Source: an uncultured Candidatus Saccharibacteria bacterium (GTDB lineage Bacteria > Patescibacteriota > Saccharimonadia > Saccharimonadales > EFPC-124). Taken from it: a stretch of DNA of 64,000 bases. The DNA lies in assembly GCA_964550035.1 (NCBI GenBank), contig CAZJVU010000001.1:147990-211989 (forward strand), given 5' to 3'. A program made the translations under genes and the position numbers. Shown one piece after another: positions 8,673 to 55,425 of this stretch. The notes beneath the pieces are model-generated. The model searched no databases. It had not been told where the DNA came from and saw only the letters and a list, made by a program, of their open reading frames with translations. The first letter of the stretch is position 1. Each line of letters opens with the position of its first letter.

Positions 8673-8751
8673 TTTCTCTCAGTCTTAGCTAAGATAGTTT
8701 ACTTTACATACTGAGCTTTTCGGTTGGTAGTGTCAATACTTTTATAGATTT

Positions 8752-9450: not shown

Positions 9451-10281
9451 ATGAAGCTTACAAAACACCAGTTTCTGATGCGGGTGCGGCGTTTGCCGGC
9501 GGGTCCGCTGTTGGCGTTTGGCATTCGGCAGGCGTGGGCAGCGCTGTTTGGTGGGCTGATGCTTCTGGGAATCGTCGTGACAACGTATGTGCATTTGCCG
9601 TGGTTGTCGCAGTACGATTGGCTGTTCCTGTGGGCGATCGCCATCCAGGCGGTAATGCTGGCGACAAGACTCGAGAAGCCCCACGAGGTGCTAACGATCC
9701 TACTCTTCCACCTTGTGGGACTGGGGATGGAAATCTTTAAGACGTCGGGCGCGATCGGGTCGTGGTCGTATCCGGGCGATGCGTTCTGGAAGGTAGGGAA
9801 TGTGCCGCTGTTCTCGGGATTTATGTACGCAGCGGTCGGTAGCTACATCGCTCGTTCGTGGCGAGTGCTGCAGCTATCGTTCCAGCCGTATCCGCCGCGG
9901 AAATGGACGGTGTTGCTGGCTATTGCAATCTATCTCAACTTCTTCACGCATCATTATATCTACGACTTTCGATATTTCCTGTTTGGCGCGGTGTTGGTGT
10001 TGTTTGGCCGAACGCGGGTGAGTTATGTGCTGAATAAGCGGGTGCATCATATGAACGTGGTTGTGGGGTTCCTGCTGATTGCGTTGTTTGTGTGGATCGC
10101 CGAGAACATCGGGACATTTACGGGCGTGTGGCTGTACCCGGAACAGCTGGCGCATTGGCAGCCGGTAAGCCTGGAGAAGATTGGTTCGTGGCTGCTGCTG
10201 ATGGTGATTAGCTTTATTATGATCGACATGTTGTACTTTATACGAAGACAACTAAGTGGTCGGAGGGTTCAGAATGGATAG
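9451..10281 (+). CDS. Polytopic membrane protein, DUF817-like
   Basis: FGIRQAWAALFGGLMLLG... and about 8 helices. The ATG at 9451 is preferred over the TTG at 9439. The family call is from memory only. Confidence 0.5.
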   Translation: MKLTKHQFLMRVRRLPAGPLLAFGIRQAWAALFGGLMLLGIVVTTYVHLPWLSQYDWLFLWAIAIQAVMLATRLEKPHEVLTILLFHLVGLGMEIFKTSGAIGSWSYPGDAFWKVGNVPLFSGFMYAAVGSYIARSWRVLQLSFQPYPPRKWTVLLAIAIYLNFFTHHYIYDFRYFLFGAVLVLFGRTRVSYVLNKRVHHMNVVVGFLLIALFVWIAENIGTFTGVWLYPEQLAHWQPVSLEKIGSWLLLMVISFIMIDMLYFIRRQLSGRRVQNG

Positions 10282-19956: not shown

Positions 19957-20043
19957 GAGCGGCGGTTGCAAAGGAGGAAATTTCTGGTACTATTTCTTTT
20001 TGTGGGCGCGTGGCAACACCTACAAGCGAGCCAGGAGGCTCAG

Positions 20044-20475
20044 ATGAACATTTCGACCGAAGACGTCGCCAAGGTCTACGAGCTTTTCAACGACGGCAAC
20101 ATCGAGGCGCTGGTGGAGAAGTTCGCGCCGGACGCCACCTACTGCCAGATCAACAGCGGCTTCGAGGCGCAGGAGCGCGGCCAGATCCGCGCCGCGCTGG
20201 ACTCCTGGCGGCAGTGCTTCACCGGCGCGCAGATCAAGAACGTCGAGGTCCTGGAGGCTCCGCACCTCGTGCACGTGGCCGAGGGCGCCGCCTGGTGCTT
20301 CCTCGTCAGCTTCCTCGGGGTCGGGCGGTACGACTTCACCATGCGCGGGTTCGACGAGATCGGGCCGGCGCACCGTCAGCGGGTCAACCTGCCGATCAGC
20401 GAGATCGTGTGGTTCGACGAGCACGGGCTGATCCGCAAGGTGGACAACGAGGTCCTGATGCAGGCCCTGCGCTGA
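20044..20475 (+). CDS. SnoaL/NTF2-like small protein (GC-rich cassette F)
   Basis: The ATG at 20044 follows AGGAGG. The N-terminus VAKVYELFNDGNIEALVEKFAPDATY is typical of SnoaL-like proteins. Third codon positions are GC-rich. Confidence 0.55.
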   Translation: MNISTEDVAKVYELFNDGNIEALVEKFAPDATYCQINSGFEAQERGQIRAALDSWRQCFTGAQIKNVEVLEAPHLVHVAEGAAWCFLVSFLGVGRYDFTMRGFDEIGPAHRQRVNLPISEIVWFDEHGLIRKVDNEVLMQALR

Positions 20476-26492: not shown

Positions 26493-27492
26493 CTTCACTG
26501 GCCAGGAGACGAGGGCAGCGTGGCATGGCTTTCGTGCTATGGCCGATGCGAATGAGCGCCAGGGGTTGCGTCTTCAACCCGAGGAGCTTTTTGAGTTCCT
26601 GGCGTGTTTCAGGGCTCTCCACGATCGAAGCGAGCGGCGCTGTGTCGAGTTTGTGCGAAGTTGCCTCTAGGCATAGCCGTTCAAAGACGCGCCCGCCCTC
26701 AAGCCAAGAGGCAGTATCGTCGCTAGCGCCGCTAATGACGGCAAGGAGCGGACTGCCGCTGATCTGTTTGGCGTCTTTTTTGGCCTGGTCTTTCTCGATT
26801 GGCGCTTTGGGGATAATGAATTTCGCGATGAGCGAAACCGGCAAGGGCATGCCTTGTACGCTCGCGGGCATGCCAGTGCTGTGAGTTGTCCAACTTGGGT
26901 GTACCCACTGAGCCAGTTCTTTTTTGAACTCGTCGTTCATGAGCTGGAGGTCGGCTTTCGAGGCCAAAGACGCGATCTGTTCGCGCACGTTGGCGTCGGT
27001 GACGAAGGTAGTGGTGATTCCTGCGCTGTTGAGGTTTTGGGCCGAGAAGCTCGAGGCATCGAGCACTTCGGGCTTATATACGCTACGGTTAGTCATCCGA
27101 CTGCGGAGGGTTTGGAACACCTGCTCGTCTGGTGTCGGCAATTGTGCAGGCCAGGTAAGCGTTACGAGCGCTGACGCCTCCGTCGAAGTCTTGTACCGGA
27201 CCTTTACGGTTGCCCCATAGGCGGTGGCGGCAGTGCAAATGTTCTCTATGGCCGCCCCAAGGCTCAACGTTGCCTGCCTGCCACTAGGGTCAGACGCAGG
27301 TAAGAGGCGGTCTGGATTCAATGAGATCTCAATGCTGTTTTGTGAGGGATGAATGGTGAATCGCCAAGGCTGTGTATTGTGGGCTGATGGCGCAAGGACT
27401 GCAAAAGAAATTAGATTTTGGAGTCGCTCCTCGGGTGTGGCGTTCCTGAGGTTGATGGTTTGAGCGCCCCAGGCTTTGTAGTTTGCTTTCAT
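26482..27492 (-). CDS. Nitroreductase-fold FMN protein, Acg-like (double-domain)
   Basis: APSAHNTQPWRF near the N-terminus, 336 aa. The 3' end overlaps the ThiF-like gene by 11 nt (convergent). Confidence 0.7.
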   Translation of the reverse strand: MKANYKAWGAQTINLRNATPEERLQNLISFAVLAPSAHNTQPWRFTIHPSQNSIEISLNPDRLLPASDPSGRQATLSLGAAIENICTAATAYGATVKVRYKTSTEASALVTLTWPAQLPTPDEQVFQTLRSRMTNRSVYKPEVLDASSFSAQNLNSAGITTTFVTDANVREQIASLASKADLQLMNDEFKKELAQWVHPSWTTHSTGMPASVQGMPLPVSLIAKFIIPKAPIEKDQAKKDAKQISGSPLLAVISGASDDTASWLEGGRVFERLCLEATSHKLDTAPLASIVESPETRQELKKLLGLKTQPLALIRIGHSTKAMPRCPRLLASEVTA

Positions 27493-27536
27493 TTCAGTTG
27501 TATCCTCACTATAATGGTGATAAAAGTAAAACCCTT

Positions 27537-29738
27537 ATGCTCAGTTCGTTTACTATATTGACTATATTAACAATCATTGCCTTAGTAGCACAACTGCTAT
27601 TGACGGTAGGTGTGCTTGTTAAGAACAGTTCTAGCCTGCGAAACAGGGCGTTTTTCTTCTTGTCGCTTTCATTGTTAGCATGGGCAGTCGTTAATTACGT
27701 ATCCGAAACATACCCCGATGTGGCGAAGACGATCTACGTTATTCGCTTTATTATGCTCTTTGCGGTAGCGCAGAACTGTTTCTTTGTGTTGTTTGGATAC
27801 TCGCTGGATGGTCGGGGATTGCGGGTGACGCGGAGGGGCATCCTGTATGCCTTACTTAGTCTCGCCACTGCAGTAATCACCCTTACGCCCTTTCTTTTTT
27901 CACACCTGGCGCCAACAGCAAAAGGCGGCATATATCCGGTGGCGCAGCCGGGTATGGCGCTATTTGTGGTGCATGCTGCATTGTCGATTACGATTGGTTT
28001 TCGCTATTTGTTGCGCGAGTTACGGTCCTCAAAAGGCGCGCGCCATCAACAGATGGTATTCATCTTTGCCGGCTCTGTGGTGTTATGGGGGATTGTGCCC
28101 ATCACTAACTTTGCGCTCTCGGTTACGCTTCAGACGAGCCTGTTTGCAAACTTTAGCCCGTTCTATGCTTTCGCTTTCTCGTCGTTGATCGCCTATGCCG
28201 TCATAAAGCACAGATTGTTTGACATACGCTTGGCAATTGCGCGAACCGTCACGTATTTGTTCTTGCTGTTTACGCTAGCCAGCATGTACGCATTGGCAAT
28301 CTTTGGCTCGGCGCGGTTATTCTTTGGAGCGAGCAATGTAACTGTGTGGCAAAACGCAGTCTATGTGGCGCTCGGTCTATTCTTGGCCTTCACCCTCGAT
28401 CCGCTACGTCGATTCTTCAGCCGGCTGACCAATAGGTTTTTTTTCCAGGATATCTATAACACCGATCTTGTGTTGGATGACCTAAGCGATATCCTCGTGC
28501 ATACCACCTCAGTGCACGATTTGGCGCGTCGTTCGCTTAAAACGTTGAACGCTGCCCTTAAGGCCGAAGCGGCAGCAATCGTCGCACTGGACAAGAAAAC
28601 TGGCAAGATCGAGAAGGTCGTGGGAGTGGGCGGCCGTCGCCTGCGCCTAGACGATGTTGTTGCGCAGGCATCAGGTAGCAAGCAGCCTATCTTGGTTTTG
28701 GACGAAATAGTTGAAGATAGTCGCCACCTGGCGCGCAGCATGCAGGAGGCTGGCGCGGCAGTTGTGGGCAGAATGGAGACTAACAAGGAACGTATCGGCT
28801 ACGTCGTATTCAGTTACAAGAGCGGTGGCGGTATGTATACCGATCAAGATCTTTATCTTATTCAGATTGCCGCGGACGAGCTGGCCGTCGCTACTCAAAA
28901 CGCTCTGCGCTTCGAGGAGATCTCGCATTTCAACGAGACGTTGCAAGGCCAGGTCCGCGAAGCCACACGCGAACTGCGCGAGAGCAACAAAAAACTCAAG
29001 TCGCTTGATGAAGCCAAGGACGAGTTCATCAGCATGGCCTCGCATCAGCTCCGCACACCGCTTACCAGTGTGAAGGGCTATATGTCGATGGTGCTCGAGG
29101 GCGACGCCGGGAAGCTGAACCCCACGCAGCACCAGCTGCTCGAGCAGGCATTTGCCAGCTCGCAGCGCATGGTGTATCTGATCAGCGACTTTCTGAACGT
29201 CTCGCGCCTGCAGACTGGTAAGTTTACCATCGAGCGCACGCCCGTTATATTGAGCAATGTCGTGCAGCAAGAGGTGAACCAGCTGAGATCAACCGCAGAG
29301 TCGCGCAACTTGACTATCGAATGCAGCGTCCCGAGCGAATTTCCGGCGCTACAGCTCGACGAAAGCAAGCTGCGCCAGGCGATCATGAACTTTGTTGATA
29401 ATGCTATTTTCTACTCGCGGCCGGGCGGCGTGATCAAGGTCGATCTCATCAAGACCGCAAAAGACGCCGTGCTGACAGTTGAGGATAGCGGAATTGGCGT
29501 GCCCATGAGTGAACGACATCATTTGTTCACAAAGTTTTATCGTGCCAGTAACGCCCGCACTGCCCGACCTGACGGCACAGGTATTGGGCTGTTCATGGCC
29601 AAGAAAGTTGTTGTCGCCCACGGCGGGTCGATTATTTTCAACAGTGTCGAGGGCAAGGGGAGCACATTTGGCTTCCGTCTGCCGCTCAAGCAGCCCGCTG
29701 GGCTATCCGAAGATCATCCGAAAGAGCTCAAACAGTAA
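27537..29738 (+). CDS. Sensor histidine kinase (multi-TM sensor, GAF-like, HisKA, HATPase_c)
   Basis: H-box SHQLRTPLTSVKGY, N-box DNAIFYS, G-boxes DSGIGV and GTGIGL. The ATG at 27537 is preferred. Confidence 0.8.
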   Translation: MLSSFTILTILTIIALVAQLLLTVGVLVKNSSSLRNRAFFFLSLSLLAWAVVNYVSETYPDVAKTIYVIRFIMLFAVAQNCFFVLFGYSLDGRGLRVTRRGILYALLSLATAVITLTPFLFSHLAPTAKGGIYPVAQPGMALFVVHAALSITIGFRYLLRELRSSKGARHQQMVFIFAGSVVLWGIVPITNFALSVTLQTSLFANFSPFYAFAFSSLIAYAVIKHRLFDIRLAIARTVTYLFLLFTLASMYALAIFGSARLFFGASNVTVWQNAVYVALGLFLAFTLDPLRRFFSRLTNRFFFQDIYNTDLVLDDLSDILVHTTSVHDLARRSLKTLNAALKAEAAAIVALDKKTGKIEKVVGVGGRRLRLDDVVAQASGSKQPILVLDEIVEDSRHLARSMQEAGAAVVGRMETNKERIGYVVFSYKSGGGMYTDQDLYLIQIAADELAVATQNALRFEEISHFNETLQGQVREATRELRESNKKLKSLDEAKDEFISMASHQLRTPLTSVKGYMSMVLEGDAGKLNPTQHQLLEQAFASSQRMVYLISDFLNVSRLQTGKFTIERTPVILSNVVQQEVNQLRSTAESRNLTIECSVPSEFPALQLDESKLRQAIMNFVDNAIFYSRPGGVIKVDLIKTAKDAVLTVEDSGIGVPMSERHHLFTKFYRASNARTARPDGTGIGLFMAKKVVVAHGGSIIFNSVEGKGSTFGFRLPLKQPAGLSEDHPKELKQ

Positions 29739-29918
29739 CCAGCCAACAATCACGGCGCCACCGCCAATGCCACCGATCAGCTTGTACTGCTTCTTGTGGC
29801 TGTCCCACCATTCGCGGGCGGGGCTTTTGACCTCGGCTTTGTAGCGGTGAACCGTCGGAGTGCTGGCAGCATCACGGCCGGTGTATTGCTTGGTGCGTTT
29901 TTTCTTGGGTTTGTTCAT
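29703..29918 (-). CDS. Small C-terminally anchored basic protein (hypothetical)
   Basis: 71-aa ORF: Lys-rich N-terminus, then IGGIGGGAVIVGWLLFELF. It overlaps the kinase 3' end (convergent). Confidence 0.4.
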   Translation of the reverse strand: MNKPKKKRTKQYTGRDAASTPTVHRYKAEVKSPAREWWDSHKKQYKLIGGIGGGAVIVGWLLFELFRMIFG

Positions 29919-30435: not shown

Positions 30436-32388
30436 TTAGCGCTTGAACGTGTCGCGCAGGTTGCGACGGCTGCCGACCCAAGCCTTGAGGCTGAGGCCGA
30501 GAGCGCTGGTACCAAAGAGTCCGCCAGCTACGATGCCGGCGCTGGTGTTTGGCAGTTCACCAGGAGTTTCACACTCCTTGTTACCCGCTGGAACACCAGG
30601 CTTACATTCGTTACACTTTTGGTCGCCCATAGGGACGCCTGGCTTACACTCGGTGCAGCGGCTGTCGCCCATTGGGATACCTGGCTTACATTCTTCAGGT
30701 GCGACAGTAACTTTCTTGGCACAGTTGTCACTGGTGATACCAGTAACGGTCTTGCCGTCTACTTCGAAGGTTACCGAAACCTTAGTGGTGTAATCACCAG
30801 GCTTGTCGTATTTGTGGGTCTGGGTTTCTTGGCCTGCGCCAACGATGATGGTCTGGCCATCGCCGAAGTCGAAGCTGTATTCCTTGACCTTGACGTTACC
30901 TTGAGTTTTTGGAGTTACCTTGTACTCGAAGGTGTCGCGTGACTTCTTGATTACGTCAAGAGCGTCACAGGTGTATTTGTTCTCGACAGGCTGTTCTTTG
31001 ACCTCGAAAGGCTTCTTACAGTTGTCGCTGGTAGCGGTCTTTTCCTGACCGTCAACCGTTACGACGACGGTTGCCTCGACGGTGTACTTGCCGACCTTTG
31101 TCTGGTCGTAGGTAAGGGTGCCATCGATGCTGTCTTTCGTGTCAAGCACGGTGCCCTTGTCGTCACGAATGACGTAGACAAACTTCTTGAACTCGGCGTT
31201 CTCTACCATCTTTGTGGCGGTGAACTTGAACTGAGTTCGCGAGATTTGCTCGACGTTCAGTGCAGAACATTCGTATTTCGGAGGCTTAGTCTCTTCACAC
31301 TTCTTGGTGGTTGTGACGTCAGCGGTGTCGCTCTTGCTGCCGCTGTCGGTTTCGACGGTTGCAGAGTTGGTGAGCTTGTTGTCGCCACAAGTTGGCAGGC
31401 TGTCGTTATCGGCAACCTTAGCGCTGAAGATAACCCACGCGTTCGCGCCGGCTGCGTATGAACCAATGTTCACACCGCCCTTGGTGACGTTGTCGGAAAT
31501 CTTTGCGCCGTCTGGTGTCTTGGTGTTACCCAGGACAGAGCTGCCGTCGACGTATGTTTCGCCAGCTGGCAGGGTGTCTTTGACGACAACGTTGTCTTGT
31601 TGGGTATCACCAGTGTTCTTGTACTGGATCAGGTAGTCAACGGTTTCGCCAGGCTGAGCAGCGTAGCTCTCAACCCATTTGTTCTCGCCGTGCTTGCTGA
31701 CGAGTTTGCTCATGGTGAAGTTGGTGCTCTGAGGAGCCTCAACTTTTACCTTGAAGGTAACGTACCCGGCGTATTGCATACAACCAGGGATGATACCGTC
31801 GAGCTTGTCGTAGCCAAGTGGTGCACCAGCGTCGGTAACGATACCGTCGCTCAGCTGTGCGCCGGCTTGGCCAAATGCGTTGTTGTACAGACGAGCTGAG
31901 CCAGCTTGGTAGGCAACGTTGAAGTCGCTGTTGCTGGTCAGTGTTGCTGAATCCCAAATCTCCTGAGGAGCGGCGTTGTCGGCAGTAATGAAACCACCAA
32001 GCTGGACGCTCTTACCAGTTGTGTTCGGGACATTTACCTTGGTGCGTACGTTTGTAGCCTTCAGGTTGAGGTTGGCAGCTGCGTCGTTGTGGACGTAGAT
32101 GCGAACCAGGTATTCGTGACCAGCCTGGGCGGTCACGCTGTCTTGCCAGCCACCGGCGGCGGTGTTACTGGCGTCTTTGATCGTTAAAAAGTTACGTTCG
32201 TCGCCGACTTCTGAGTTGTCGGTGATCGAGTCAAACGTCACGTGGTCAGCAGGGTTGGCCATGGTGTAGGTAGGACGGTCAGGACCCCATGCCATAACAA
32301 CGGCAGGAATCATAACAGCAGCTACGGCAACGCCCATAGGCAACCAGCGCTTCGGAACGCGACGAAGTAATGTAGAAACAAACTTCAT
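30436..32388 (-). CDS. Cell-surface protein with PKD-type repeats, Cys-rich CKPG[IV]P repeats and an LPNTS sortase-type sorting signal
   Basis: Signal peptide. PKD-like FDFGDGQT. ECKPGIPMGDSRCTECKPGVPMGDQKCNECKPGVPAGNKECE. Then LPNTSAG, a hydrophobic stretch and an RRNLRDTFKR tail. Confidence 0.75.
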   Translation of the reverse strand: MKFVSTLLRRVPKRWLPMGVAVAAVMIPAVVMAWGPDRPTYTMANPADHVTFDSITDNSEVGDERNFLTIKDASNTAAGGWQDSVTAQAGHEYLVRIYVHNDAAANLNLKATNVRTKVNVPNTTGKSVQLGGFITADNAAPQEIWDSATLTSNSDFNVAYQAGSARLYNNAFGQAGAQLSDGIVTDAGAPLGYDKLDGIIPGCMQYAGYVTFKVKVEAPQSTNFTMSKLVSKHGENKWVESYAAQPGETVDYLIQYKNTGDTQQDNVVVKDTLPAGETYVDGSSVLGNTKTPDGAKISDNVTKGGVNIGSYAAGANAWVIFSAKVADNDSLPTCGDNKLTNSATVETDSGSKSDTADVTTTKKCEETKPPKYECSALNVEQISRTQFKFTATKMVENAEFKKFVYVIRDDKGTVLDTKDSIDGTLTYDQTKVGKYTVEATVVVTVDGQEKTATSDNCKKPFEVKEQPVENKYTCDALDVIKKSRDTFEYKVTPKTQGNVKVKEYSFDFGDGQTIIVGAGQETQTHKYDKPGDYTTKVSVTFEVDGKTVTGITSDNCAKKVTVAPEECKPGIPMGDSRCTECKPGVPMGDQKCNECKPGVPAGNKECETPGELPNTSAGIVAGGLFGTSALGLSLKAWVGSRRNLRDTFKR

Positions 32389-32613
32389 GCTCTTCTCCCT
32401 TAGTATTTTACTTATATCATAAATTGGTAGTGTAATCGAAACTATTTTCTTCTAGAAACTCTTTGGAACCAGATTGTTAATGAACGCTCATTGCTCAATT
32501 ACAGGTCAGATCATTTCAACTTGCTTGGTTGTTCCCCGAGGGGAGCAACGCGACCGAGCTTGTGGGCCCAGATGGTTACTCCTCTCGGTGGGGTGGTATA
32601 GCTTGTGGTCCCG

Positions 32614-32657
32614 CCGAACCGCCGGGCTGCCCGGGTTGGGCGAGCTCGGCGGTTCGG
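32614..32657 (-). terminator. GC-rich hairpin after cassette G
   Basis: CCGAACCGCCG-N22-CGGCGGTTCGG, immediately 3' of the stop at 32668. Confidence 0.45.
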
Positions 32658-32667
32658 TCAGTGCTGG

Positions 32668-34032
32668 TTAGCACTTGGGGATGCCCGGTGGGCACTTGAC
32701 GCCGGTGGCCGGGGCGCTCGGCTTGGGAGCCGGCGTCTCGACCGGTTGGGTCGGCGTGTGCGTGACCGTCGGTTGGTGCGTTGTCGGGTGCGGGTCGTAA
32801 CTCGTCGGCGGGTCGGACGGCCGGGGTTCGGTCGTCGACGGCGCCGGCGGGTTGGGACCTCCTTGTGATGCGCACACCTTCGTCCCGTCCGCACATCCCT
32901 GCGCGGAAATCTTGGACTCGATGCACTTGCCGTTCTCGTTCTCGTGTTCCGACGGGATGCATTTCTGCGTCGTGGTCGGCGGAGAAGTCGGCGGCGTTGT
33001 CGTCCCCGGGGGCGGCGTGCTGCCGTGTGTCGACTGGCTCGGAGTGGGGATCGGCGTCGGGATCGGCTTGGACTTCGGCAGCCGCCACAGGTTGTGGCAG
33101 TCGACGAAGGCACCATTGTCGGTCTCGATGTCCTTGAACTGCTCCTTCTCGTCGAGGGTAACCTTTCCCAGCGAAACTCGAACCATCGACCGCGCGTCGA
33201 TGAACTGATCGCAGTGGTTGATGTTCAAGTGCCGGGTGTTGATGATCGAGTCGACTCGAACGATCGGCAGCGTGCCGACGTTGGGGTTGCCGTCGCTGGC
33301 AGCCTTCTGTCGAATCGCGTCGTCGTTCAGGGACGTGTTGACGGCGAGGATGAAGCGGTCGTCATGCTCCTTCTCCGTGGCCACGAACTTCGGGACGTCG
33401 GTGTCCCAGTTCATGGCGAGGTTGGAGTTGGCGCAGTCGGTGTACCACTTCTCTTTGCCGTACAGACCGTCCAGCTCGGACCAGCTGTTTGTCCGATGCG
33501 CATCCGCGGATGTCCCCGTGGTGACGGGTACGGTGCGGGCGTCGCGGTTGGACTCGCTGCCGGTGATGGGCTTGTCGGGCTGACCCCCGTAGATGATGGC
33601 CAGCGTCTTGGTCTTGCCGTCGACATCTGTCACGGTCGCCGTGGGGCTGTCCGTGCAGGTGCCCTTGACGACGGCGTCTGCCTTCGCGTCGAGTTCGGCC
33701 TTGCGGGTCTTCAGCGTGTCGTTCAGGGTCTTGAGCTCCGGCGCGGTGGCCGGGGCGGTGAATCCGAACTTGGTGATGCCGTCGTAGTTGCCGGACTGGG
33801 TCACGTCCTGGGCGGCGCGGGTGAACTCGTCGTCGACGATCTTCGCGTCGGCGCACGTCACGGCCGCGATGCCGGCGCTGATGTTGGGTGACTGGTAGGC
33901 TCCGCCGTTGCTTCCGGGTTTCATCCCGAGTGCAGCGCCGGTCACCACCAGTCCGGCCACCACCAGCGCGGCGATGGACGGTAGGGCCCAGCGCCGTCCT
34001 GTGGCTGTGGTCGGTGCGGTTGTGGCAGTCAT
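32668..34032 (-). CDS. Secreted hypothetical protein with Pro/Thr-rich linker and Cys-rich C-terminus (GC-rich cassette G)
   Basis: The ATG at 34030-34032 follows AAAGGAG. The N-terminus MTATTAPTTATGRRWALPSIAALVVAGLVVTGAALG is Tat/Sec-signal-like. The protein ends ...VKCPPGIPKC. Third codon positions are very GC-rich. Confidence 0.6.
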   Translation of the reverse strand: MTATTAPTTATGRRWALPSIAALVVAGLVVTGAALGMKPGSNGGAYQSPNISAGIAAVTCADAKIVDDEFTRAAQDVTQSGNYDGITKFGFTAPATAPELKTLNDTLKTRKAELDAKADAVVKGTCTDSPTATVTDVDGKTKTLAIIYGGQPDKPITGSESNRDARTVPVTTGTSADAHRTNSWSELDGLYGKEKWYTDCANSNLAMNWDTDVPKFVATEKEHDDRFILAVNTSLNDDAIRQKAASDGNPNVGTLPIVRVDSIINTRHLNINHCDQFIDARSMVRVSLGKVTLDEKEQFKDIETDNGAFVDCHNLWRLPKSKPIPTPIPTPSQSTHGSTPPPGTTTPPTSPPTTTQKCIPSEHENENGKCIESKISAQGCADGTKVCASQGGPNPPAPSTTEPRPSDPPTSYDPHPTTHQPTVTHTPTQPVETPAPKPSAPATGVKCPPGIPKC

Positions 34033-34394
34033 GGGGGCACTCCTTTCGTGTCGAAGCCCCAAGGGTTTGCCCGCTCTGACCGCGGGCGCGGTTTCAGATG
34101 TAATGCGGGCGGCTGCTAGAGGCCAGGGCACGGAGGAGCACTTAAGCTATACCGTGCCGCTCCTGTAAGGCGCAGCAGTGTATTCACCAAGGGCTTTGTT
34201 TTGCGGCAATGCCCATCGGCGAATACACTGCCACGCCTCAGATGGAGAGCGGCAGATAAAGTAAGCTAAAATGATCTGACTTGTCAAAGAGCTCTTCGTC
34301 TTGCTGTGCCTGATTCAAAATATAAAAAAAGCCGCATGGCTGCAGCTATCCTTACGCCTCTCCTCACACACTGCCGCAAAACGATGTCTTAGTA

Positions 34395-34423
34395 AATATA
34401 ACACAAAACGGTAGTGGTGTCAA
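34395..34423 (-). promoter_or_regulatory. Near-consensus sigma70 promoter facing cassette G
   Basis: TTGACA-N17-TATATT on the minus strand, about 360 nt upstream of the G start. Confidence 0.45.
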
Positions 34424-34461
34424 TATTCTTAAGCACTATTGTATGGCTTGCGCAAATAACA

Positions 34462-34491
34462 AAACTACCCCTGCCGTGACGGGGGTAGTTT
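34462..34491 (-). terminator. Intrinsic terminator after ORF 34509..35876
   Basis: AAACTACCCC-N10-GGGGTAGTTT, followed by TTTTGTTATTT on the minus strand. Confidence 0.65.
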
Positions 34492-34508
34492 GAGGATTGG
34501 AGGTCTGA

Positions 34509-35876
34509 TTAGCGGCGGATAAAGCTGCTCATCAGGTTGCGGCGACTTCGGATGAAGTAACCACCAGCGGTCAGGATACTACCACCACCGATCGTGCCAC
34601 CAAGGACACTTACGGCACTGGTGTTTGGCAGCTCTTCAGGAGTACACTCCTTGCTGTCAGCTGGAACGCCTGGCTTACACTCGGTGCAACGGCTGTCGCC
34701 AACAGGGATACCTGGCTTACATTCCTGTGGAGGAGTTTGCTCAGGGCTGATCTTTGTCTGGCAAGTAACGCTCTTGACGTTACCGGCAACGTTGAAGTTG
34801 ACAGTTGCGACAATGGTGTAGTCGCCAGCCTTAGCGAACGTGTGCTCGCTCATAGCGGTGCTTTCGTCAGATGGCTTTACGCCGCTGACAGTTTGGCCAT
34901 CGCCAAAGTTGAAGTTTACATCCTTCAGGGTAGCGCCACCGCTCTGGGTCGTCTTGGCAGTAAAGCGGTACTGGCGGTTTTCTTTGTTAATGGTCGTAGC
35001 GGTCAGTGCGCTACAAGCGTAGGCAGGGGTTTCGGGAACAGGTTTAACCTCGACAGGCTTGGCACACTTGGCGCCGGTGACGGTCTTGGCCTCACCATTT
35101 ACAGATACGTAGACAGTAACTTTGGTCGTGAATGAGCCTTCCTTGGCGTATTCGTGCGTTACAGTCTGGCTTGCACTTGTAACGGTCTGGCTGGTGCCGT
35201 CGCCGAATTCGTACACAAGCTTGGCAACCTTGGCGCCGTTCAGGGCAGTTACGTCGGTTGTGTAGTTAAAGGTGGTGCGGTTTTTCTGGGTAACGTTCAG
35301 CATGTTACAGCTGTATTCAGGAGCCTTACCAGTTGGGTGACCCTTTACTGGGTTACCGCAAGCAGTCAGGGCGGCGAACTCAAACTGGTCGCCATTCATC
35401 ATAACCAGCGCAGGAATGTCACTTCGGAAAGCGTCCTGGTCGCGGTCTTGGTAGTACGTCTTACCGCCAATGTTGACAGTAGTAGAGTACGATTTCTTAT
35501 TTCGGCCAAGGCTGACAGCGTCGGTCGCAACGACCTTACCATCTACCTTTACGGTACCGTCTCGGTAGGCCATACCCATCTTGGCGGTTTTGCTCAGGCG
35601 ATCAATCTCGTTTGGAGCAAGACCGTAATCTGCGTAGATGGCAGGGTAGTCGCCTTTATCGTTAGCCTTGTACTTAGCAACAAAGTCATCGATGGTACTG
35701 TAACCACAAGGCAAAATGTTATTACTATCACACGTTGCGGCGCTGGCGCTAGAGCCAGAAGCTGCAAAGTTTGCCGTCAGGGCAACGCCCGTCATGGCTA
35801 CAAACAGTGCGCCTACTAGTAGCTTGCTACCAGAGGCATGGCGAATGCGATTCGCGATCTTATTAAATACGTTCAT
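34509..35876 (-). CDS. Cell-surface PKD-repeat protein with LPNTS sorting signal (paralog of 30436..32388)
   Basis: Signal peptide. YEFGDGTSQTV and NFNFGDGQTVSG. ECKPGIPVGDSRCTECKPGVPADSKEC. Then LPNTSAV, a hydrophobic stretch and an RSRRNLMSSFIRR tail. Confidence 0.75.
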   Translation of the reverse strand: MNVFNKIANRIRHASGSKLLVGALFVAMTGVALTANFAASGSSASAATCDSNNILPCGYSTIDDFVAKYKANDKGDYPAIYADYGLAPNEIDRLSKTAKMGMAYRDGTVKVDGKVVATDAVSLGRNKKSYSTTVNIGGKTYYQDRDQDAFRSDIPALVMMNGDQFEFAALTACGNPVKGHPTGKAPEYSCNMLNVTQKNRTTFNYTTDVTALNGAKVAKLVYEFGDGTSQTVTSASQTVTHEYAKEGSFTTKVTVYVSVNGEAKTVTGAKCAKPVEVKPVPETPAYACSALTATTINKENRQYRFTAKTTQSGGATLKDVNFNFGDGQTVSGVKPSDESTAMSEHTFAKAGDYTIVATVNFNVAGNVKSVTCQTKISPEQTPPQECKPGIPVGDSRCTECKPGVPADSKECTPEELPNTSAVSVLGGTIGGGSILTAGGYFIRSRRNLMSSFIRR

Positions 35877-36003
35877 TAAGTTCTCCCAAACTTACCTTTC
35901 AACTTAGCTATAGTAGCATAAGTATGACAGAATGTCAATATTACGCTTACGCTTTGATTCCTGAAAGGAGAACGACCCCTGCAAACTGTGGCATAATAGA
36001 GAG

Positions 36004-36408
36004 GTGAATAAAGAGACGCCGCAGATACCACAGCTCATGAATGCCCCTTTAAAGGCGGGATTTCCTAACCCAGCCGAAGAAGCGGGTGGATTTGCGCTCG
36101 ATCTCAATCAGTATCTGGTCAAGCACCCTGTTAGTACCTATTATCTGAGGGTAGAAGGTGATTCGATGACCGGGGCGGGTATCACCTCTGGAGATATAGT
36201 GGTGGTTGATAAGTCGCTTCAGGCACGGTCAGGTGATATCGTCGTGGCGGCGGTGGACGGTGATTTTACGCTTAAAAGACTCAAGAAACAGGGGAGCGGC
36301 GCCTGGCTAGTGGCCGAACACCCCGGTTATTCGCCGATCGCGCTCCATGAAGCAACAGATGCCGCTCTCTGGGGTGTGGTGACATTTGTCGTGCATAAGG
36401 CTCGGTAG
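36004..36408 (+). CDS. umuD: UmuD-like S24 peptidase (translesion polymerase accessory subunit)
   Basis: GFPNPAEE ... VEGDSMTGAGI ... FTLKRL matches the LexA/UmuD Ser-Lys dyad context. It sits directly upstream of umuC. Confidence 0.8.
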   Translation: MNKETPQIPQLMNAPLKAGFPNPAEEAGGFALDLNQYLVKHPVSTYYLRVEGDSMTGAGITSGDIVVVDKSLQARSGDIVVAAVDGDFTLKRLKKQGSGAWLVAEHPGYSPIALHEATDAALWGVVTFVVHKAR

Positions 36409-36409
36409 T

Positions 36410-37684
36410 ATGGCAAGAAAACCTGTTTTTGCGCTTGTCGACTGCAATAACTTCTTCGTGAGCTGCGAGCGAGTATTTCGACCTGACCTCTGGGACAAGC
36501 CCGTCGCGGTATTGAGCAACAACGACGCCTGTATTGTGGCGCGCAGCAACGAAGTTAAGGAGATGGGTGTGCCCATGGGCGCGCCGCTCTTCAAGATCGA
36601 CCATCTGATGAAGGGGAAGGGCGTGACGCTGTTTTCGGCCAACTTCCGTTTGTATGGCGACTTCTCGCAGCGTGTCGTGCGGATTTTGACCTCTGTGGCA
36701 CCAGAGATAGAAGTGTATTCGGTCGACGAGTCGTTTCTGGAGATATCGAGCCTGCCCGTCGATAACTATCAGGAGTGGGCCGAGACAGTGCGCGCTTGTA
36801 TCTTGCAGTGGACGGGTATCCCTGTATCTATTGGGGTGGCGCCCACCAAGACACTCGCCAAGGCGGCCTCGGAGTATGCCAAGAAGACAGCAACTTCATC
36901 TGGGGCCTATGTCGTGGCGGAAGATAACAGAGAAGACCTCTTGAGATGGCTCGCAGTCAAAGATGTGTGGGGCGTCGGGCGTGCGCTGGGGCCGAAGCTT
37001 CTGCAGCGCGGTGTCTCGACAGCATATGATCTAACCCAGGTGAGCGAGGTGTGGGCGCGTCAACAGATGTCGATCCGCGGCCTCAAGACCGTCAAAGAGC
37101 TCAAAGGCGAGAGCTGCCTCCCCCTGGAGCACGAAGTCGAACCGCAGCAATCTATCGCTCGCACGCGTTCATTCGGGCACAACGTGCGTGACTACTATCA
37201 GCTCGAGGGCGCCATTGCGACGTTCGCAGCTCAGGCGGCTGTAAAATTGCGTGCGCAAAAGGAGATTGCAACAGGGGTGGTTGTATTCGTGCGAACTCCG
37301 CATAACTTCGAAGGCGGGCATGGTTCCTCGACCCTCGTGCGCTTACCTCAGCCTACCTCTGACACTGGTGAGCTTATTGCAGCTGCGCTCAAGGGACTTG
37401 AGATTATCCGCGATCCGGATTTTGCTTATAAGCGCGCGGGCGTGGCGTTGGTGGGGCTCGTCTCGAAAGAAGCCTGGCAGCTTTCACTCTTGCAAGATTC
37501 TTCGGGGCTAGATAAGAGAGCGGCGCTGATGCAGTCAGTCGATCAGCTGAATACGAAATACAATACGCGATTAATCCGTCACGGCAGCGAGCACCTCGAG
37601 CTTACAGGGTGGCATAGCAAGCACGAACTCCGCAGTCCAGCGTACACAACATCGTGGAGCGATCTGCCTATTATCAAGAGGTGA
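36410..37684 (+). CDS. umuC: Y-family DNA polymerase (UmuC-like)
   Basis: FALVDCNNFFVSCERVF N-terminus and SVDESFLE. The ATG lies one nt after the umuD stop. Confidence 0.85.
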   Translation: MARKPVFALVDCNNFFVSCERVFRPDLWDKPVAVLSNNDACIVARSNEVKEMGVPMGAPLFKIDHLMKGKGVTLFSANFRLYGDFSQRVVRILTSVAPEIEVYSVDESFLEISSLPVDNYQEWAETVRACILQWTGIPVSIGVAPTKTLAKAASEYAKKTATSSGAYVVAEDNREDLLRWLAVKDVWGVGRALGPKLLQRGVSTAYDLTQVSEVWARQQMSIRGLKTVKELKGESCLPLEHEVEPQQSIARTRSFGHNVRDYYQLEGAIATFAAQAAVKLRAQKEIATGVVVFVRTPHNFEGGHGSSTLVRLPQPTSDTGELIAAALKGLEIIRDPDFAYKRAGVALVGLVSKEAWQLSLLQDSSGLDKRAALMQSVDQLNTKYNTRLIRHGSEHLELTGWHSKHELRSPAYTTSWSDLPIIKR

Positions 37685-37736: not shown

Positions 37737-37823
37737 TAAAAATACCCTATCGACGACCGCGCCACGCATTTTATGGAAGGGTTGAAGAAAGGGTACATCC
37801 CCCGATCCAGAAGGAGCACCACC

Positions 37824-38210
37824 ATGGACCAGAAGCCGAGACACGCCGCCACCGACACCGGTAACGTCGCGGTCCTCACCGGCAACGACAATGTCATGCG
37901 TCGTCGGGGCATGACTCGCCGCCGCAAGGCCGTCGTCGTCAACAACTCCGCGCCCAGCGCGGTGGTTCACGGCGACAGGGAGATCGTGGTCTCGAAGAAG
38001 TTCCGCGACGTCGTCCAGTCCATCTACACCGGCGGCAACATCGCCGCGACCTGTGAGGGCAACGCCGAGCGTCTCCTCGACGCGATGGTGCACTGCCTCA
38101 ACAAGCGCAACGACCTGCCGAAGTGGACTCGCAGCGACGTGGCGACGGTCATCGGCTACCTGGCCGACAAGGGTGACATCTGGTTGCCCGCCGAGATCCG
38201 CGCGAGCTGA
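37824..38210 (+). CDS. Hypothetical protein (GC-rich cassette H)
   Basis: The ATG at 37824 follows AAGGAG. 128 aa with GC-rich third positions. No family recognised. Confidence 0.55.
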   Translation: MDQKPRHAATDTGNVAVLTGNDNVMRRRGMTRRRKAVVVNNSAPSAVVHGDREIVVSKKFRDVVQSIYTGGNIAATCEGNAERLLDAMVHCLNKRNDLPKWTRSDVATVIGYLADKGDIWLPAEIRAS

Positions 38211-44818: not shown

Positions 44819-45229
44819 TCAGCTGAAGAACCCCAGGATGCGGTCGAAGATCGACCGCTTCGGCGCCGGAATGAACCGAACGGCGAACCCGTCACCGTCC
44901 GCGGTCATCCGCGGCGGGATGGCGAGCGCGCTCCAGGTGACGGTCCGTTCCCCCGTCGCCGGGTGCTTGAGCACGATCCCCTCGCGGGTGAGGTGCATCA
45001 GGCGACCGACGGGCGGGAGGACCGTGGACGTCCCGGCGGGGACGGCGTAGAGTGCCTGGACCCAGATCTCCTTGCTGTGGTAGTCACAGCCGAAGAGCTC
45101 GCTGATGTCGGTGATCAGCTTGGTGGTGGAGTCCAGCCCGAGCTGGGTCCCGAAGCGTTCGATGAACTCGTCGCGACTCACGCTCTTGGCGCCGGGGGTC
45201 GAACCGGTGGAGACCTGCTGGTGCTGCAT
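44819..45229 (-). CDS. Hypothetical protein (GC-rich cassette J)
   Basis: The ATG at 45229 (MQHQQVSTG...) follows GAAAGGA. 136 aa with GC-rich third positions. No family recognised. Confidence 0.55.
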   Translation of the reverse strand: MQHQQVSTGSTPGAKSVSRDEFIERFGTQLGLDSTTKLITDISELFGCDYHSKEIWVQALYAVPAGTSTVLPPVGRLMHLTREGIVLKHPATGERTVTWSALAIPPRMTADGDGFAVRFIPAPKRSIFDRILGFFS

Positions 45230-45290
45230 GGTGTGTCCTTTCTGAGGTGCGGGCTTCAGCACCTCAAGGTGGAGGGACAAAGCTTTAGCG

Positions 45291-50402: not shown

Positions 50403-51218
50403 ATGTGCGTCACAGCAGAAGAGGCCGAAATCTCGGGAACGCGGACCTACGTCTACGCCACCGACCTGGGCAACGGCCCGGTGCACGTCTGCGGATACCA
50501 GAACGTGGCGGAGTCGCGGGCGGGCGGGAACTGCATGTTCCTCAACTTCGCCGGCACAAACCTGAAGATGGTTCAGGGGCCGGAGCGCACCGAGAGCCTC
50601 ATGGACGACATGACCTCGGAGCTGCCGCTCCTGGTCCCGCCGCCCGCGCTGAGGAGCCGTAGCGGTTCGTTCGGCGGATGGCGCAGTGCCACTGTAGAGG
50701 AATACGGCGACTACACGGTCGTCCTGGCGCAGCAGCCGGAGGACATGCTCCTCGCGCTCCGTCAGGTGCCGGAGAGCCGTCGTCCCGAGCGGACCCCGCG
50801 GCTGGAGGAGATGATCAGCTTCTACATGTCGTTCTACCCGTGGGACAGCTTCGCCCTGCCGTGCTTCGACGGGGCGGTCGCACCCACGCACCCGATCACG
50901 GTGAGGTATACGCCGCGCGATCCCAGAGTCCTGACCATTCCCGGTCTGGACGCGCACGACGGCAATCTGCCGGTGCGCGGCGCGCCGGTCTACCGCGACT
51001 TCCGGGTGGCGTTCGGCGTCCAGGGCATGGACCTGCCGCACAAGGTCGACTACACCGACTCCGGTGTGGGTGCCCAACCGTGGGCGCCGGACAGTGTGGC
51101 CGGGTTCGTCGACAACCGCAAGGACGGCCCCAACGGCGAGTACGTCATGCCGATCAAGGCCCTCCGTCGAGGGTGGACCGGCAGCAAGCTGGCCAAGAGG
51201 CTGGTCGCCGCCGTGTAA
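50403..51218 (+). CDS. Hypothetical cytoplasmic protein (GC-rich cassette K)
   Basis: 271-aa ORF with AAGGAG 7 nt upstream. The product starts Met-Cys. Third positions are GC-rich, and the alternative frames are Arg-rich artefacts. Confidence 0.55.
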   Translation: MCVTAEEAEISGTRTYVYATDLGNGPVHVCGYQNVAESRAGGNCMFLNFAGTNLKMVQGPERTESLMDDMTSELPLLVPPPALRSRSGSFGGWRSATVEEYGDYTVVLAQQPEDMLLALRQVPESRRPERTPRLEEMISFYMSFYPWDSFALPCFDGAVAPTHPITVRYTPRDPRVLTIPGLDAHDGNLPVRGAPVYRDFRVAFGVQGMDLPHKVDYTDSGVGAQPWAPDSVAGFVDNRKDGPNGEYVMPIKALRRGWTGSKLAKRLVAAV

Positions 51219-54348: not shown

Positions 54349-55425
54349 CTAGCTGGCTTGAGGCAATTGTTGGCTGCGGGGTATGACGCCATCGATCGAG
54401 CCTGAACGGCGAACGGCATGTTGGCCGGGCCGCGGGACTGGTTGAAGCTTGGGGGGCTGGCGTACGATGTCGGCTTGTATTGGGCGCGCAGACTGCACTG
54501 GCCGAACACGAGGGGCGGCGATATCCATGACGGGGCGAACGCGCGGAGCTGGGCTGCGCGCCGCGACTGTTGCTTGCGGAGATGATGCGTGTGACGTGAG
54601 TGGTCGGTTGATCGGCGTCGGCTGTGCGGCGAGGTGGATTTGAGCGCTTGATTGAACGACTTTGCGATCCCGCTTGGTGCGGTTCTGGAGCCACACAAGC
54701 AGCACGCCAATCTGATACATCAGTATAATTGGCACCGCCAAGATAGCTTGGTTAGTGACGTCCGGCGTTGGCGAAATAACCGCAGCCACGATAAACGCTC
54801 CGAGCACAACAAACCGCTGGAAGCCCATGAGTTTCTTAGGCGGGATCGGCTTGATGGTGTTAATGATCATGAGTATCAACGGAATCTGGAAGAGCGCCGC
54901 AAACCCAAGCACATACGTGATTATAAAATTAAGATATGAATCAACCGTCAACATAGCCGTAACGTTCTGAATATTGAACCCAGTCAAGAAATGAAGCGCT
55001 GCAGGCAGACTGCCAAAGTAGGCGAAACATGCACCACCTATCGCCAAAAAGAACGACGCTATTATATAGAAGACAACGGAGCGTTTACGCTTTACGGGCA
55101 TAAGCGGCTCGAGGAACCGATACAGATGATATATAATGACAGGCAAAATAACACCGAGCCCAAAGTAGAGTGATACTTTAAATAAGAAATTAAAGCCACC
55201 TATCGGCGTCAGATAGACGAGTCGCTGCCCACCCAGCGGATGCATTAAGACGTGCATAATTTGGTCTTGGATAAGATAGCTCGCCGATCCCGCCAGGATC
55301 AGTGCCAAAACTATCCAGAACAATCTGGCGCGTAACTCATGCAGATGATCAATGAGTGTCTGCTGGCGTGCGTGAACGGTCTGGTTAGGACTTGTTGGTG
55401 CCGGTTGAGTTTTTGCTGTCATCAC
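54349..55425 (-). CDS. tatC: Twin-arginine translocase subunit TatC with a roughly 100-aa C-terminal extension
   Basis: The N-terminus [19 protein letters not shown] and six helices are typical of TatC. The tail is Pro/Arg/Gln-rich, with APRVRPV occurring twice. Confidence 0.85.

Follow-up and report, generated by a model that had tools for sequence, protein, structure and literature searches.

In the genome of an uncultured Candidatus Saccharibacteria bacterium, three head-to-tail open reading frames (ORFs) lie on the minus strand of a 64-kb stretch of DNA (contig CAZJVU010000001.1, positions 147,990 to 211,989), which is called the window in what follows. We named these ORFs B, G and A in their order of transcription: A and B encode Ig-like proteins that carry sortase-type signals, and G, which is GC-rich and evolves fast, encodes a protein with a Pro/Thr stalk. 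On balance, we consider that this locus is probably a long-standing cell-surface module of bacteria of the Saccharimonadia type, within the candidate phyla radiation (CPR), rather than the product of an insertion, and that G is a diversifying resident of this module, the expression of which would be conditional. A first-pass annotation of the window had described a surface-protein locus in an epibiont-like genome, and our analysis bears out this description, the genome being of the Saccharibacteria/CPR type. Loci related to the one of the window are labelled L002 and so on, and homologous proteins P0021 and so on.

Conserved gene order around G

The genes of the locus and their neighbours in the window are as follows.

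36004..37684, plus strand: S24 peptidase (LexA/UmuD-like) and Y-family polymerase UmuC (IMS, IMS_C, DUF4113)
34509..35876, minus strand: gene B, 455 aa, secreted, with an N-terminal domain without family match, two PKD domains, two Cys repeats and LPNTS
32668..34032, minus strand: gene G, 454 aa; the open frame extends to a GTG at 34131
30436..32388, minus strand: gene A, 650 aa, secreted, with an N-terminal beta-rich domain (about residues 40-232), a CLIPPER/DUF11 domain (237-359) and two Ig/PKD-like domains
29703..29918, minus strand: conserved 71-aa protein with a C-terminal transmembrane helix, which follows A in all loci long enough to include it
27483..29738, plus strand: HisKA_7TM sensor kinase, convergent, past the small membrane protein

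The order S24 peptidase, UmuC, B, G, A, tail-anchored protein of about 71 aa and convergent HisKA_7TM kinase was found again elsewhere: either the full order or an adjacent G-A pair was seen in L002-L006, L009-L012, L039, L050, L060, L087 and L133-L136. Synteny was assessed on 15 distinct loci, L133, L134 and L135 being identical in their DNA. L007 carries a G-like gene, then a gene of the major facilitator superfamily and then A, and no integrase, transposase or other mobility gene was found at the locus. The S24 peptidase and Y-family polymerase genes adjoin the locus in L002, L003, L005, L007, L009, L012 and L133-L135, and the S24 peptidase gene alone does so in L136. In L012, two genes (7739..9523) are found between B and the G unit: one encodes a 118-aa Peptidase_S74 fragment (phage tail-fibre chaperone type) and the other a 412-aa protein without family match.

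Searches for relatives of G led to the same group of organisms. Among 5.8 billion proteins, 26 relatives were found, one of which is named (Candidatus Saccharimonadales). When each GTDB species was represented by one genome, three loci were recovered, all of them in metagenome-assembled genomes (MAGs) of Saccharibacteria or Saccharimonadales. A profile of the globular part of G matched 152 clusters among 1.84 billion cluster representatives; the names found for the twenty of these that were looked up were those of a Nomurabacteria MAG and a Saccharimonadales MAG, with no sequence from an isolate. Several distant members of the family share contigs with A-family genes (P0150 with P0057, P0229 with P0062, and also P0158). 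One point tempers this result, which is that most members of the superfamily are unnamed metagenomic proteins, so that their absence from Actinobacteria is unproven.

G differs from its surroundings by its base composition. In the window, it has a GC content of 0.65 and a GC content at third codon positions (GC3) of 0.84-0.86, compared with a GC3 of 0.58-0.64 for A and B, 0.55-0.71 for ordinary genes and about 0.62 for the rest of the window, and the excess of GC-ending codons concerns nearly every amino acid over the whole length of the gene. The same anomaly was seen in every related locus examined, in genomes with a background GC3 of about 0.45 to 0.65: the GC3 of G is 0.84-0.86 in L002 and L009, as in the window, next to neighbours at about 0.6-0.7, 0.80 in L006 (neighbours about 0.52), 0.78 in L007 (neighbours about 0.50) and 0.82 in L012 (neighbours 0.40-0.52). 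Altogether, G genes have a GC3 of 0.78-0.86 between flanks of 0.40-0.70 and a GC content of about 0.66 in genomes of 0.48-0.55. Since this anomaly sits at one and the same locus across lineages with saturated synonymous sites, it cannot be the relic of a recent transfer and must be maintained.

These observations bear directly on the origin of G. The first-pass annotation had found G foreign-looking and had read the shared motif either as the recruitment of a host-type adhesion or ligand module or as an exchange between this genome and its donors. Put in full, this view makes of G a foreign gene, recently acquired for example from a GC-rich actinobacterial host, with a Cys motif that was recruited from, or exchanged with, the neighbouring adhesins. 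Such an origin would explain why G has a GC3 of 0.84 in a window that is otherwise at about 0.62, and it fits with the Pro/Thr/Ala-rich, actinobacterial-looking composition of the protein, with the lipoprotein-type signals of many superfamily members and with the presence of other orphan ORFs with a GC3 of about 0.9 dispersed in the window. However, G occupies an identical syntenic position in every related locus that was examined, it shows the same GC excess everywhere, even where the background GC3 is about 0.45-0.5, it diverges together with A (see below), its named homologues are from CPR bacteria only, and no mobility gene accompanies it. Moreover, its Cys-containing tail is ancestral to the G family and uses motif codons that are unlike those of A and B. 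A recent foreign origin is thus contradicted on most counts, and we consider it very improbable.

Possible causes of the GC richness of G may be ranked as follows: locus-specific recombination or gene conversion comes first, selection on the RNA or on codon usage second, and repeated replacement from a GC-rich pool of alleles third. Translational selection is an unlikely cause of the high GC3, as the glycolytic genes of the window are at 0.62-0.65 and as G evolves fast.

Other GC3-rich genes were noticed in the window. Five more small ORFs have a GC3 of 0.89-0.94 (2896..3414, minus strand; 20002..20475, plus strand; 37773..38210, plus strand; 44819..45280, minus strand; 50403..51218, plus strand), of which only 20002..20475 has a family match (SnoaL_2), the others being orphans in Pfam, NCBIfam and PHROGs. 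Two of the five have GC3-rich counterparts at the matching position in related loci, with 27-38% identity compared with 75-90% for their neighbours, and about 10% of the genes of the window seem to belong to this GC3-rich and fast-evolving class. None of these other ORFs is flanked by inverted repeats or belongs to the G family, which makes the repeat-bounded structure that is described below specific to G.

Rapid change and occasional replacement of G

When the window was compared with L009, amino-acid identity was 90% for A, 89% for B, 87% for UmuC and 92% for the S24 peptidase, and only 54% for G. At the DNA level, identity is 0.8-0.95 in B and A and drops sharply to 0.5-0.73 inside G. The rate of non-synonymous change (dN) was 0.425 for G and 0.06 for A and B, so that G evolves about seven times faster, when rates of synonymous change (dS) estimated by the Nei-Gojobori method were of the same order (0.75 for G and 0.56-0.66 for A and B). 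In addition, pairwise identities of G follow those of A over 55 pairs of loci (Spearman 0.89). Replacement was observed as well: in L011, A is 91% identical to that of the window, but the central domain of G is a different one (of the type found in P0021, P0024 and P0025), lying between the same N-terminus and the same tail, which ends in ...PSAPATGVQCPPGIPNC. Altogether, G is mostly inherited together with A and B, under a constraint that is weak or diversifying, with occasional replacement of a domain or of an allele. As a surface determinant, it would be under diversifying pressure linked to host recognition, host defence or phage.

Several features of these data speak against this interpretation of G and have to be set against it. 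The codon bias of G lowers the level at which its synonymous sites saturate and distorts dS, and a distance at four-fold sites corrected by hand was about twice that of A. The dN/dS ratio of G, at about 0.4-0.6, stays below 1, and diversifying selection is not separable from relaxed constraint. The pairs of loci behind the correlation with A are not independent of each other, which leaves vertical inheritance unproven, and the swapped domain of L011 demonstrates that replacement does occur.

Two further observations concern the neighbours of G. The divergence of A and B at four-fold sites is 0.29-0.36, compared with 0.47-0.65 for neighbouring housekeeping genes (versus L009 and L011), which could mean that a recombination event or a sweep recently carried this region from one lineage to another. 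The HisKA_7TM kinase is only 57% identical (dN 0.40) to its counterpart in L011 (3904..6075), where other genes are at 86-91%. Next to G, it would thus be another gene of this neighbourhood that evolves fast or was replaced.

The swap in L011 raises the alternative that the G unit, which is bounded by an inverted repeat (see below), is an exchangeable cassette, of which alleles are swapped between lineages of Saccharimonadia when homologous recombination takes place in the conserved flanks (leader and 3' block), as could happen upon natural transformation. Its high GC content would then come from a shared pool of GC-rich alleles or from GC-biased gene conversion at a recombination hot spot. 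Besides the different central domain of G next to a 91% identical A, the abrupt drop of identity inside G, the better conservation of the flanks compared with the G coding sequence, the coincidence of the compositional border with the repeat arms and the low four-fold-site divergence of A and B, which hints at recent recombination in the region, are all in favour of such exchanges. Against them, the identity of G tracks that of A, its dS is comparable to that of the flanks, and A and B, despite lying beside the supposed hot spot, show no GC3 enrichment. No silent G-like fragments, which could act as donor copies, were found in the 64-kb window. Considering these points, regular exchange of a cassette seems rather unlikely to us as the main explanation, and the preferred view stays that of a resident gene with occasional replacements.

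Transcription units and leader RNA of G

The signals that we predicted around the three genes are listed here.

35910..35938, minus strand: promoter-like site of B, TTGACA, 17 nt, TACTAT, with an extended -10 TG; from a consensus scan only
34455..34490 (approximate), minus strand: intrinsic terminator of B, CTACCCC...GGGGTAG followed by a T-run; compensatory stem changes between loci
34395..34423, minus strand: promoter of G, TTGACA, 17 nt, TATATT, with an extended TG; 11/12 matches; kept in all clade-1 loci
34033..34388, minus strand: 5' leader of G, with a length of about 360 nt in the window that reaches about 490 nt in related loci
34330..34347, minus strand: internal hairpin and U-run of the leader, terminator-like
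34168..34238, minus strand: long hairpin of the leader, with a loop CGCCGCAAA complementary to the 5' end of the leader GUUUUGCGGC
32614..32657, minus strand: stem-loop after the stop codon of G, GC-rich, 15-bp arms 93% complementary, no U-run; compensatory changes between loci
32411..32419, minus strand: putative extended -10 of the A promoter, TG-A-TATAAG, conserved upstream of A in relatives; recognised in the sequence, not flagged by the consensus scan

Judging from these predicted signals, A, B and G are separate transcription units. When the loci were aligned, the spacer between B and G, including the leader, turned out to be better conserved than the G coding sequence. The leader starts with the invariant sequence GACAUCGUUUUGCGGC, carries a hairpin of variable sequence with a U-run at about 40-110 nt into its length, then two long helices, and has a conserved end region around the Shine-Dalgarno sequence. 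Folding of nine loci with RNAalifold gave 61 pairs, of which 15 had changed on both sides, and 97.7% of the cells of the alignment were paired. In a covariation test on these nine sequences, from which the structure itself had been derived, the 15 double-sided pairs compared with 7.7 +/- 1.9 in shuffled alignments (0/500 shuffles reached the observed value) and with 2-5 in controls in which the structure was slid. Since many pairs in the helices are G.U pairs, the structure most likely acts in the sense RNA.

Two additional contacts were predicted in the leader. Pairing of its 5' end with the loop of the first hairpin is kept between the window and L002 by one difference that compensates another. 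A segment that adjoins the left arm of the inverted repeat described below (GUUC-CUU) could pair with AAGGAGC and thereby mask the Shine-Dalgarno sequence; both partners are invariant, hence this pairing has no support from covariation. A search of Rfam 15 with cmscan returned only chance-level miRNA matches for the leader (E = 0.07-0.46).

From this architecture, we propose that the expression of G would be conditional: G has a strong promoter of its own, and the early terminator of the leader would gate its expression by attenuation, to which the possible anti-Shine-Dalgarno pairing may add.

An inverted repeat around the G unit

The G unit is bounded by two repeat arms.

34259..34292: left arm, core AAGTCAGATCATTTTAG, inside the leader
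32493..32526: right arm, followed by a conserved block with the near-palindrome TGAGCGYTCA and TTAACAAT

In the window, the arms are 34 nt long and 79% complementary. The same repeat surrounds G in L002, L003, L005, L009 and L010, and it does so in the more distant L004, L006 and L012 as well, where the arms are 86-91% complementary. Overall, the arms measure 20-34 nt, with a 20-nt core that is complementary in seven loci; they have changed in concert at five positions, and the constant asymmetries of the core are all of the G.U type. The arms also mark the limits of the GC-rich domain, which corresponds to the whole repeat-bounded unit rather than to the coding sequence, as non-coding DNA has a GC content of 0.54-0.68 inside the arms and of 0.29-0.49 just outside (six loci). 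As a separate observation, the conserved block at about 32460..32490 (minus strand) holds TGAGCGYTCA and then TTAACAAT. The motif CATTAACAA is found immediately before the left arm too, and such elements may belong to operators or promoters.

A scan of metagenomes with the 18-mer TCAGATCATTWYAGTTCA gave mostly chance matches, with real G loci in 4/120 stretches, and the apparent partner arm in L034, L105 and L131 belongs to an unrelated transporter operon.

The arms could act by pairing the 5' and 3' parts of an RNA, as a pair of protein-binding sites or as recombination sites. In the last case, they would be sites of a site-specific recombinase that inverts the 1.4-1.8-kb segment between them and so switches G off, a form of phase variation with the promoter outside of the segment. 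Arms of 20-34 nt on either side of G in every locus of two divergent clades, their concerted changes at five positions, the promoter just outside of the left arm and a variable surface-protein payload, which is typical of phase-variable loci, are what one would expect of such a switch. Yet G is co-oriented with A and B in all 15 distinct loci (a weak test, as assemblies show the majority state only), no recombinase was recognised among the ORFs scanned near the locus, an inversion would bring no recognisable gene behind the promoter, and the G.U-type asymmetries fit with RNA pairing as well. We thus regard inversion as unlikely. An apparent flip of G in L133 and L135 was discarded, since their DNA is identical to that of L134 and only the gene calls differ: the same DNA is called as a 454-aa G in L134 (2917..4281), and as two spurious antisense ORFs (237 and 61 aa) in L133 (4579..5768) and in L135 (3104..4293). 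This also serves as a warning for annotation, as public calls for the GC-rich G are sometimes on the wrong strand, to which GC-rich genes of these genomes are prone.

Alternatively, the arms may pair with each other in the G transcript, the leader with the 3' untranslated region, or they may be two operators for one regulator, perhaps the response regulator that works with the neighbouring HisKA_7TM kinase; in both versions, the expression of G would be coupled to a signal. The core is complementary in seven loci with exceptions of the G.U type only and with compensatory or concerted changes, the left arm lies in a leader that is structured at the RNA level and adjoins the predicted anti-Shine-Dalgarno segment, and a two-component system is a constant neighbour of G, all of which is consistent with one or the other version. 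Still, concerted change fits RNA pairing and recognition by one protein alike, the G.U bias concerns two asymmetric positions and is statistically not meaningful, and, to include the right arm, the transcript would have to run past a strong stem-loop that stands between this arm and the stop codon of G. Coupling through the arms is, in our opinion, conceivable but doubtful, and more plausible than inversion.

The most far-reaching possibility is that the repeat-bounded G unit is a diversification locus of an undescribed kind, in which a locus-specific process keeps the GC content high, the payload diversifies or is swapped, and a novel leader RNA gates expression and communicates with the 3' arm. 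Targeted recombination, gene conversion or mutagenesis tied to the always-adjacent Y-family polymerase are the processes that could be envisaged. We put this forward tentatively, as an idea with rather low odds.

A and B as putative wall-anchored stalk proteins

The sorting signals and Cys repeats of the two proteins are encoded at the following positions.

34617..34631, minus strand: LPNTS sorting signal of B, then a hydrophobic stretch and a basic tail
34644..34724, minus strand: the two Cys repeats of B, ECKPG[IV]P..C
30541..30555, minus strand: LPNTS of A, then a hydrophobic stretch and a basic tail
30556..30696, minus strand: the three Cys repeats of A

The PKD_4 model (PF18911) matched both proteins above its Pfam cut-off of 27 (33.2 bits for A and 53.6 bits for B), and the CLIPPER/DUF11 domain of A was found by PF01345 (42 bits for a cut-off of 24.6) as well as by TIGR01451 (43.2 bits for a cut-off of 24). 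A and B had been called PKD paralogs with LPNTS signals, which we could confirm with the precision that their paralogy is confined to the C-terminal half of each protein, where they are 40% identical over 293 aa (E = 3e-54), the N-terminal domains being unrelated. In both of them, a stretch of about 22 hydrophobic residues and then a basic tail come after LPNTS, an arrangement that is found in no other real ORF of the window. Two more proteins of the window look secreted (4956..6650 and 7098..8672, both on the minus strand), one with a right-handed beta-helix and the other with Big_7, fn3 and CarboxypepD_reg domains; both lack an LPNTS-type sorting signal.

Among 120 homologues of the A family, an LPxTG motif stands at the same position in 106, LPNTS in 7 and LPNTD in 1; the majority pentapeptide is LP[KSHQTN]TG, and the LPNTS and LPNTD forms are confined to close relatives of this genome. 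In L009, A carries LPNTG and B carries LPNTS, so that a single sortase would have to take both of them; LPNTS is thus best seen as a tolerated drift at position 5 and not as the mark of a separate system.

The AlphaFold model of A is of high confidence up to residue 570, and in Foldseek searches it neighbours BcpA and pilins of Streptococcus sanguinis. The CLIPPER domain has been described as the stalk domain of fibrillar adhesins, and the Lys-Asn isopeptide bond is missing in some DUF11 domains (doi 10.1101/2025.04.25.650565). Altogether, A and B would be exported proteins of the adhesin or stalk type, anchored to the wall and probably attached to it covalently by a sortase that is encoded elsewhere in the genome. 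Over half of the genomes of CPR bacteria have a sortase gene, and the CPR is enriched in DsbA/MdbA-like oxidoreductases with VKOR (PMC6744442); the Cys loops of the stalks of A and B may accordingly be closed by extracytoplasmic disulfide formation.

Some results are less favourable to this assignment. The LPXTG models stay just under their cut-offs (TIGR01167, 14.8 for 15.9; PF00746, 13 for 20), and no sortase was found in the 64-kb window, whether by a scan for the TLxTC motif, a phmmer search that started from SrtA or a comparison of about 35 ORFs with Pfam, in line with what had been noted earlier on the absence of a sortase gene from the window. The block of Cys repeats was modelled with a predicted local distance difference test (pLDDT) score below 50, so that the picture of disulfide loops rests on the sequence and on the reported enrichment of DsbA/MdbA-like enzymes in CPR.

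Other assignments were tried and rejected. The PamR model of the CPR Pam pilus (NF058578) reached 20 bits in B for a cut-off of 300, over one Ig-like stretch only, and no chaperone gene of the pam type was found in the locus. The Cys-rich repeat of the Myxococcus type (DUF4215, PF13948) scored 11.2 bits for a cut-off of 27 (E = 0.48). A search for homologues with the 96-aa fragment that holds the Cys repeats and the anchor gave no match, the word index needing longer queries.

Protein G and its Cys-Pro-Gly loops

G is made of an RR-containing signal or anchor, a helical hairpin, an alpha/beta globular domain and a Pro/Thr stalk with three short Cys loops. In the window, these loops are C-x11-C, C-x6-C and a terminal C-x6-C, the last of which belongs to the end ...GVKCPPGIPKC. 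The GC-biased codons, the RR N-terminus, the Pro/Thr tail and the GVKCPPGIPKC end that had been attributed to G were all found again in its sequence. Two features of the window are of use here.

32671..32694, minus strand: terminal loop CPPGIPKC of G
54349..55425, minus strand: TatC gene (PF00902, E = 7.7e-51)

The TatC gene implies that the organism has a twin-arginine translocation (Tat) export pathway, which bears on the N-terminus of G: 18/19 family members have RR in the n-region, although the fuller RR-x-hydrophobic-hydrophobic pattern is present in 9 only. The hydrophobic stretch that follows, with its 21 residues, may be a membrane anchor. G is probably an exported protein, which may use Tat, and it would act as a variable antigenic or host-contact determinant.

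The globular domain was modelled by AlphaFold with a pLDDT of about 90 over residues 50-330. What this domain resembles gives no help to such a role: G has no match in Pfam, NCBIfam or PHROG, sequence profiles of the globular domain found no relative in the PDB, and Foldseek searches of the model against the PDB and BFVD gave best E values of 0.31 and 0.62, with low TM-scores.

The loop at the end of G brings up its relation to the repeats of A and B. A has three copies of the motif E-C-K-P-G-[IV]-P-x-G-D-x-x-C and B has two, and among the real reading frames of the 64-kb window, C.PG[IVM] is found in A, B and G only. The tail of G had been regarded as effectively one copy of the repeat of its neighbours. 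The shared part, C-x-P-G-I-P, is real and has a probability of about 0.0015-0.002 of arising by chance in the tail, given its composition, but the likeness stops there. The consensus of the A family, from 119 instances in homologues, is E-C-K-P-G-[IV]-P-[VM]-G-D-x-R-C and forms a C-x10-C loop, whereas the tail of G, K-C-P-P-G-I-P-K-C, forms a C-x6-C loop without the conserved E, K, G-D and R positions. Different codons are used as well, TGT AAG CCA GGT ATC CCA in A and B and TGC CCA CCG GGC ATC CCC in G.

Homologues of G do keep a C-terminal Cys-Pro-Gly loop, which speaks for the first-pass annotation, as homologues lacking it would have counted against the latter. Nearly all of the close ones end in ...P-A-T-G-C-x-P-P-P-G-[MI]-x-x-C, the PGIP variant being in the minority, and among 147 representatives of the superfamily, 46 end with a Cys pair and 21 with C..PG..C. 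Examples of distant tails are GCVPNPGETTC, CPLGPGMC, ECVNPPGMDVC and CNPDFQDC. Pro/Thr tails of the family also have internal loops, of the type CKPGEC or C-x-PP...G-x-C, in addition to the terminal one; P0158, for example, has GCKPGEC and GCKPNEC. Proteins of the A family carry 0-4 copies of ECKPG[IV]P directly before the sorting signal, beside loops such as CVPGKDAAC and CTVPGKEHLPKNSPDC. The occurrence of the terminal C..PG..C loop across the superfamily of G argues that it is ancestral to G and was not copied from the repeat of A and B. Furthermore, L004 has the terminal loop in G and no repeat in A, which shows that there is no obligate pairing of the loop of G with the repeats of A. An exchange of the motif is thus not supported, in view of the family-wide distribution of the loop, of its different codons and of the way in which the identity of G tracks that of A. 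These sequences may reasonably be read as showing that the surface proteins of this lineage commonly have short Cys-bounded Pro-Gly loops in their stalks, inherited separately in each family.

Comparison with known systems

A and B resemble the sortase-anchored adhesins and pilins of Gram-positive bacteria (LPXTG proteins with CnaA/CnaB, CLIPPER/DUF11 or PKD domains) by their signal peptide, their chain of Ig-like beta-sandwiches and their LPxT-x motif with a hydrophobic stretch and a basic tail. They differ from them by residue 5 of the motif, which is S here and D in one relative instead of G, by the 0-4 Cys-bounded Pro-Gly loops that proteins of the A/B type add before the signal and for which no family model was found, and by the lack of a sortase or pilus-type cluster beside them. 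Substrates of class D sortases, such as BasH and BasI, the LPNTA-containing substrates of SrtC in Bacillus anthracis, also have LPNT-x with a small non-glycine residue 5. This residue is A in the class D substrates and S, G or D here, and the mixture of LPNTG and LPNTS in L009 suggests tolerance and not a dedicated specificity.

The vlsE gene of Borrelia is an expression site for antigenic variation that has an anomalous composition. Like vlsE, G is a variable surface-protein gene far above the GC content of its genome, with sharp compositional borders and an associated inverted repeat. Unlike vlsE, it comes without silent cassettes or G-quadruplex (G4) motifs in the window, its variation was seen between lineages, and its host and protein family are unrelated. 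Invertible switches (fimS, Hin/Gin and the invertons of Bacteroides) share with the G unit inverted repeats of 20-34 nt, the control of surface proteins and a promoter beside one arm, but G has one orientation in 15 loci, no recombinase was identified and the promoter lies outside of the segment. As in the leaders of riboswitches and attenuators, the leader of G has a conserved promoter, covarying helices, an early U-run terminator and a possible sequestering of the Shine-Dalgarno sequence; in contrast to them, it has no Rfam match, is unusually long (360-490 nt) and serves a surface protein rather than a metabolic gene or a transporter.

A further parallel, within the CPR, is a hypervariable surface protein of a Gracilibacterium with Pro-Thr-Asp repeats, of which the motif is common to a co-occurring bacterium (PMC6851277). 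Both this protein and G are CPR surface proteins with an N-terminal anchor, a Pro/Thr-rich region and local hypervariation, and in both cases a motif present in another surface protein prompted ideas about adhesion. In the Gracilibacterium, however, nucleotides vary and the peptide repeat is kept, whereas in G the protein varies and the composition is kept, and the partner of the motif is found in another organism in the first case and in neighbouring genes of the same genome in the second.

Implications for the surface biology of Saccharibacteria

A and B belong to a known kind of proteins, the sortase-type Ig-like surface proteins. For the G family, its repeat-bounded GC-rich unit and its leader RNA, no description was found in the literature and family libraries that were searched; compositionally odd loci of antigenic variation, invertible switches and attenuator leaders come closest and resemble them in part only.

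In Saccharibacteria and other CPR bacteria, which live attached to bacterial hosts, the molecules that determine host contact and host range are mostly obscure. The locus provides candidates for such contacts: two Ig-like stalk proteins that are conserved across hundreds of CPR genomes, and the exported, fast-evolving G, of which a domain can be swapped between near-identical genomes. If confirmed, the inverted repeat that co-evolves at a compositional border and the long structured leader RNA without a described family would be of wider interest. If the persistent GC richness of G across genomes of different base composition is confirmed as well, a deviating composition would not be a reliable sign of recent transfer in these bacteria, and a locus-specific force would be implied.

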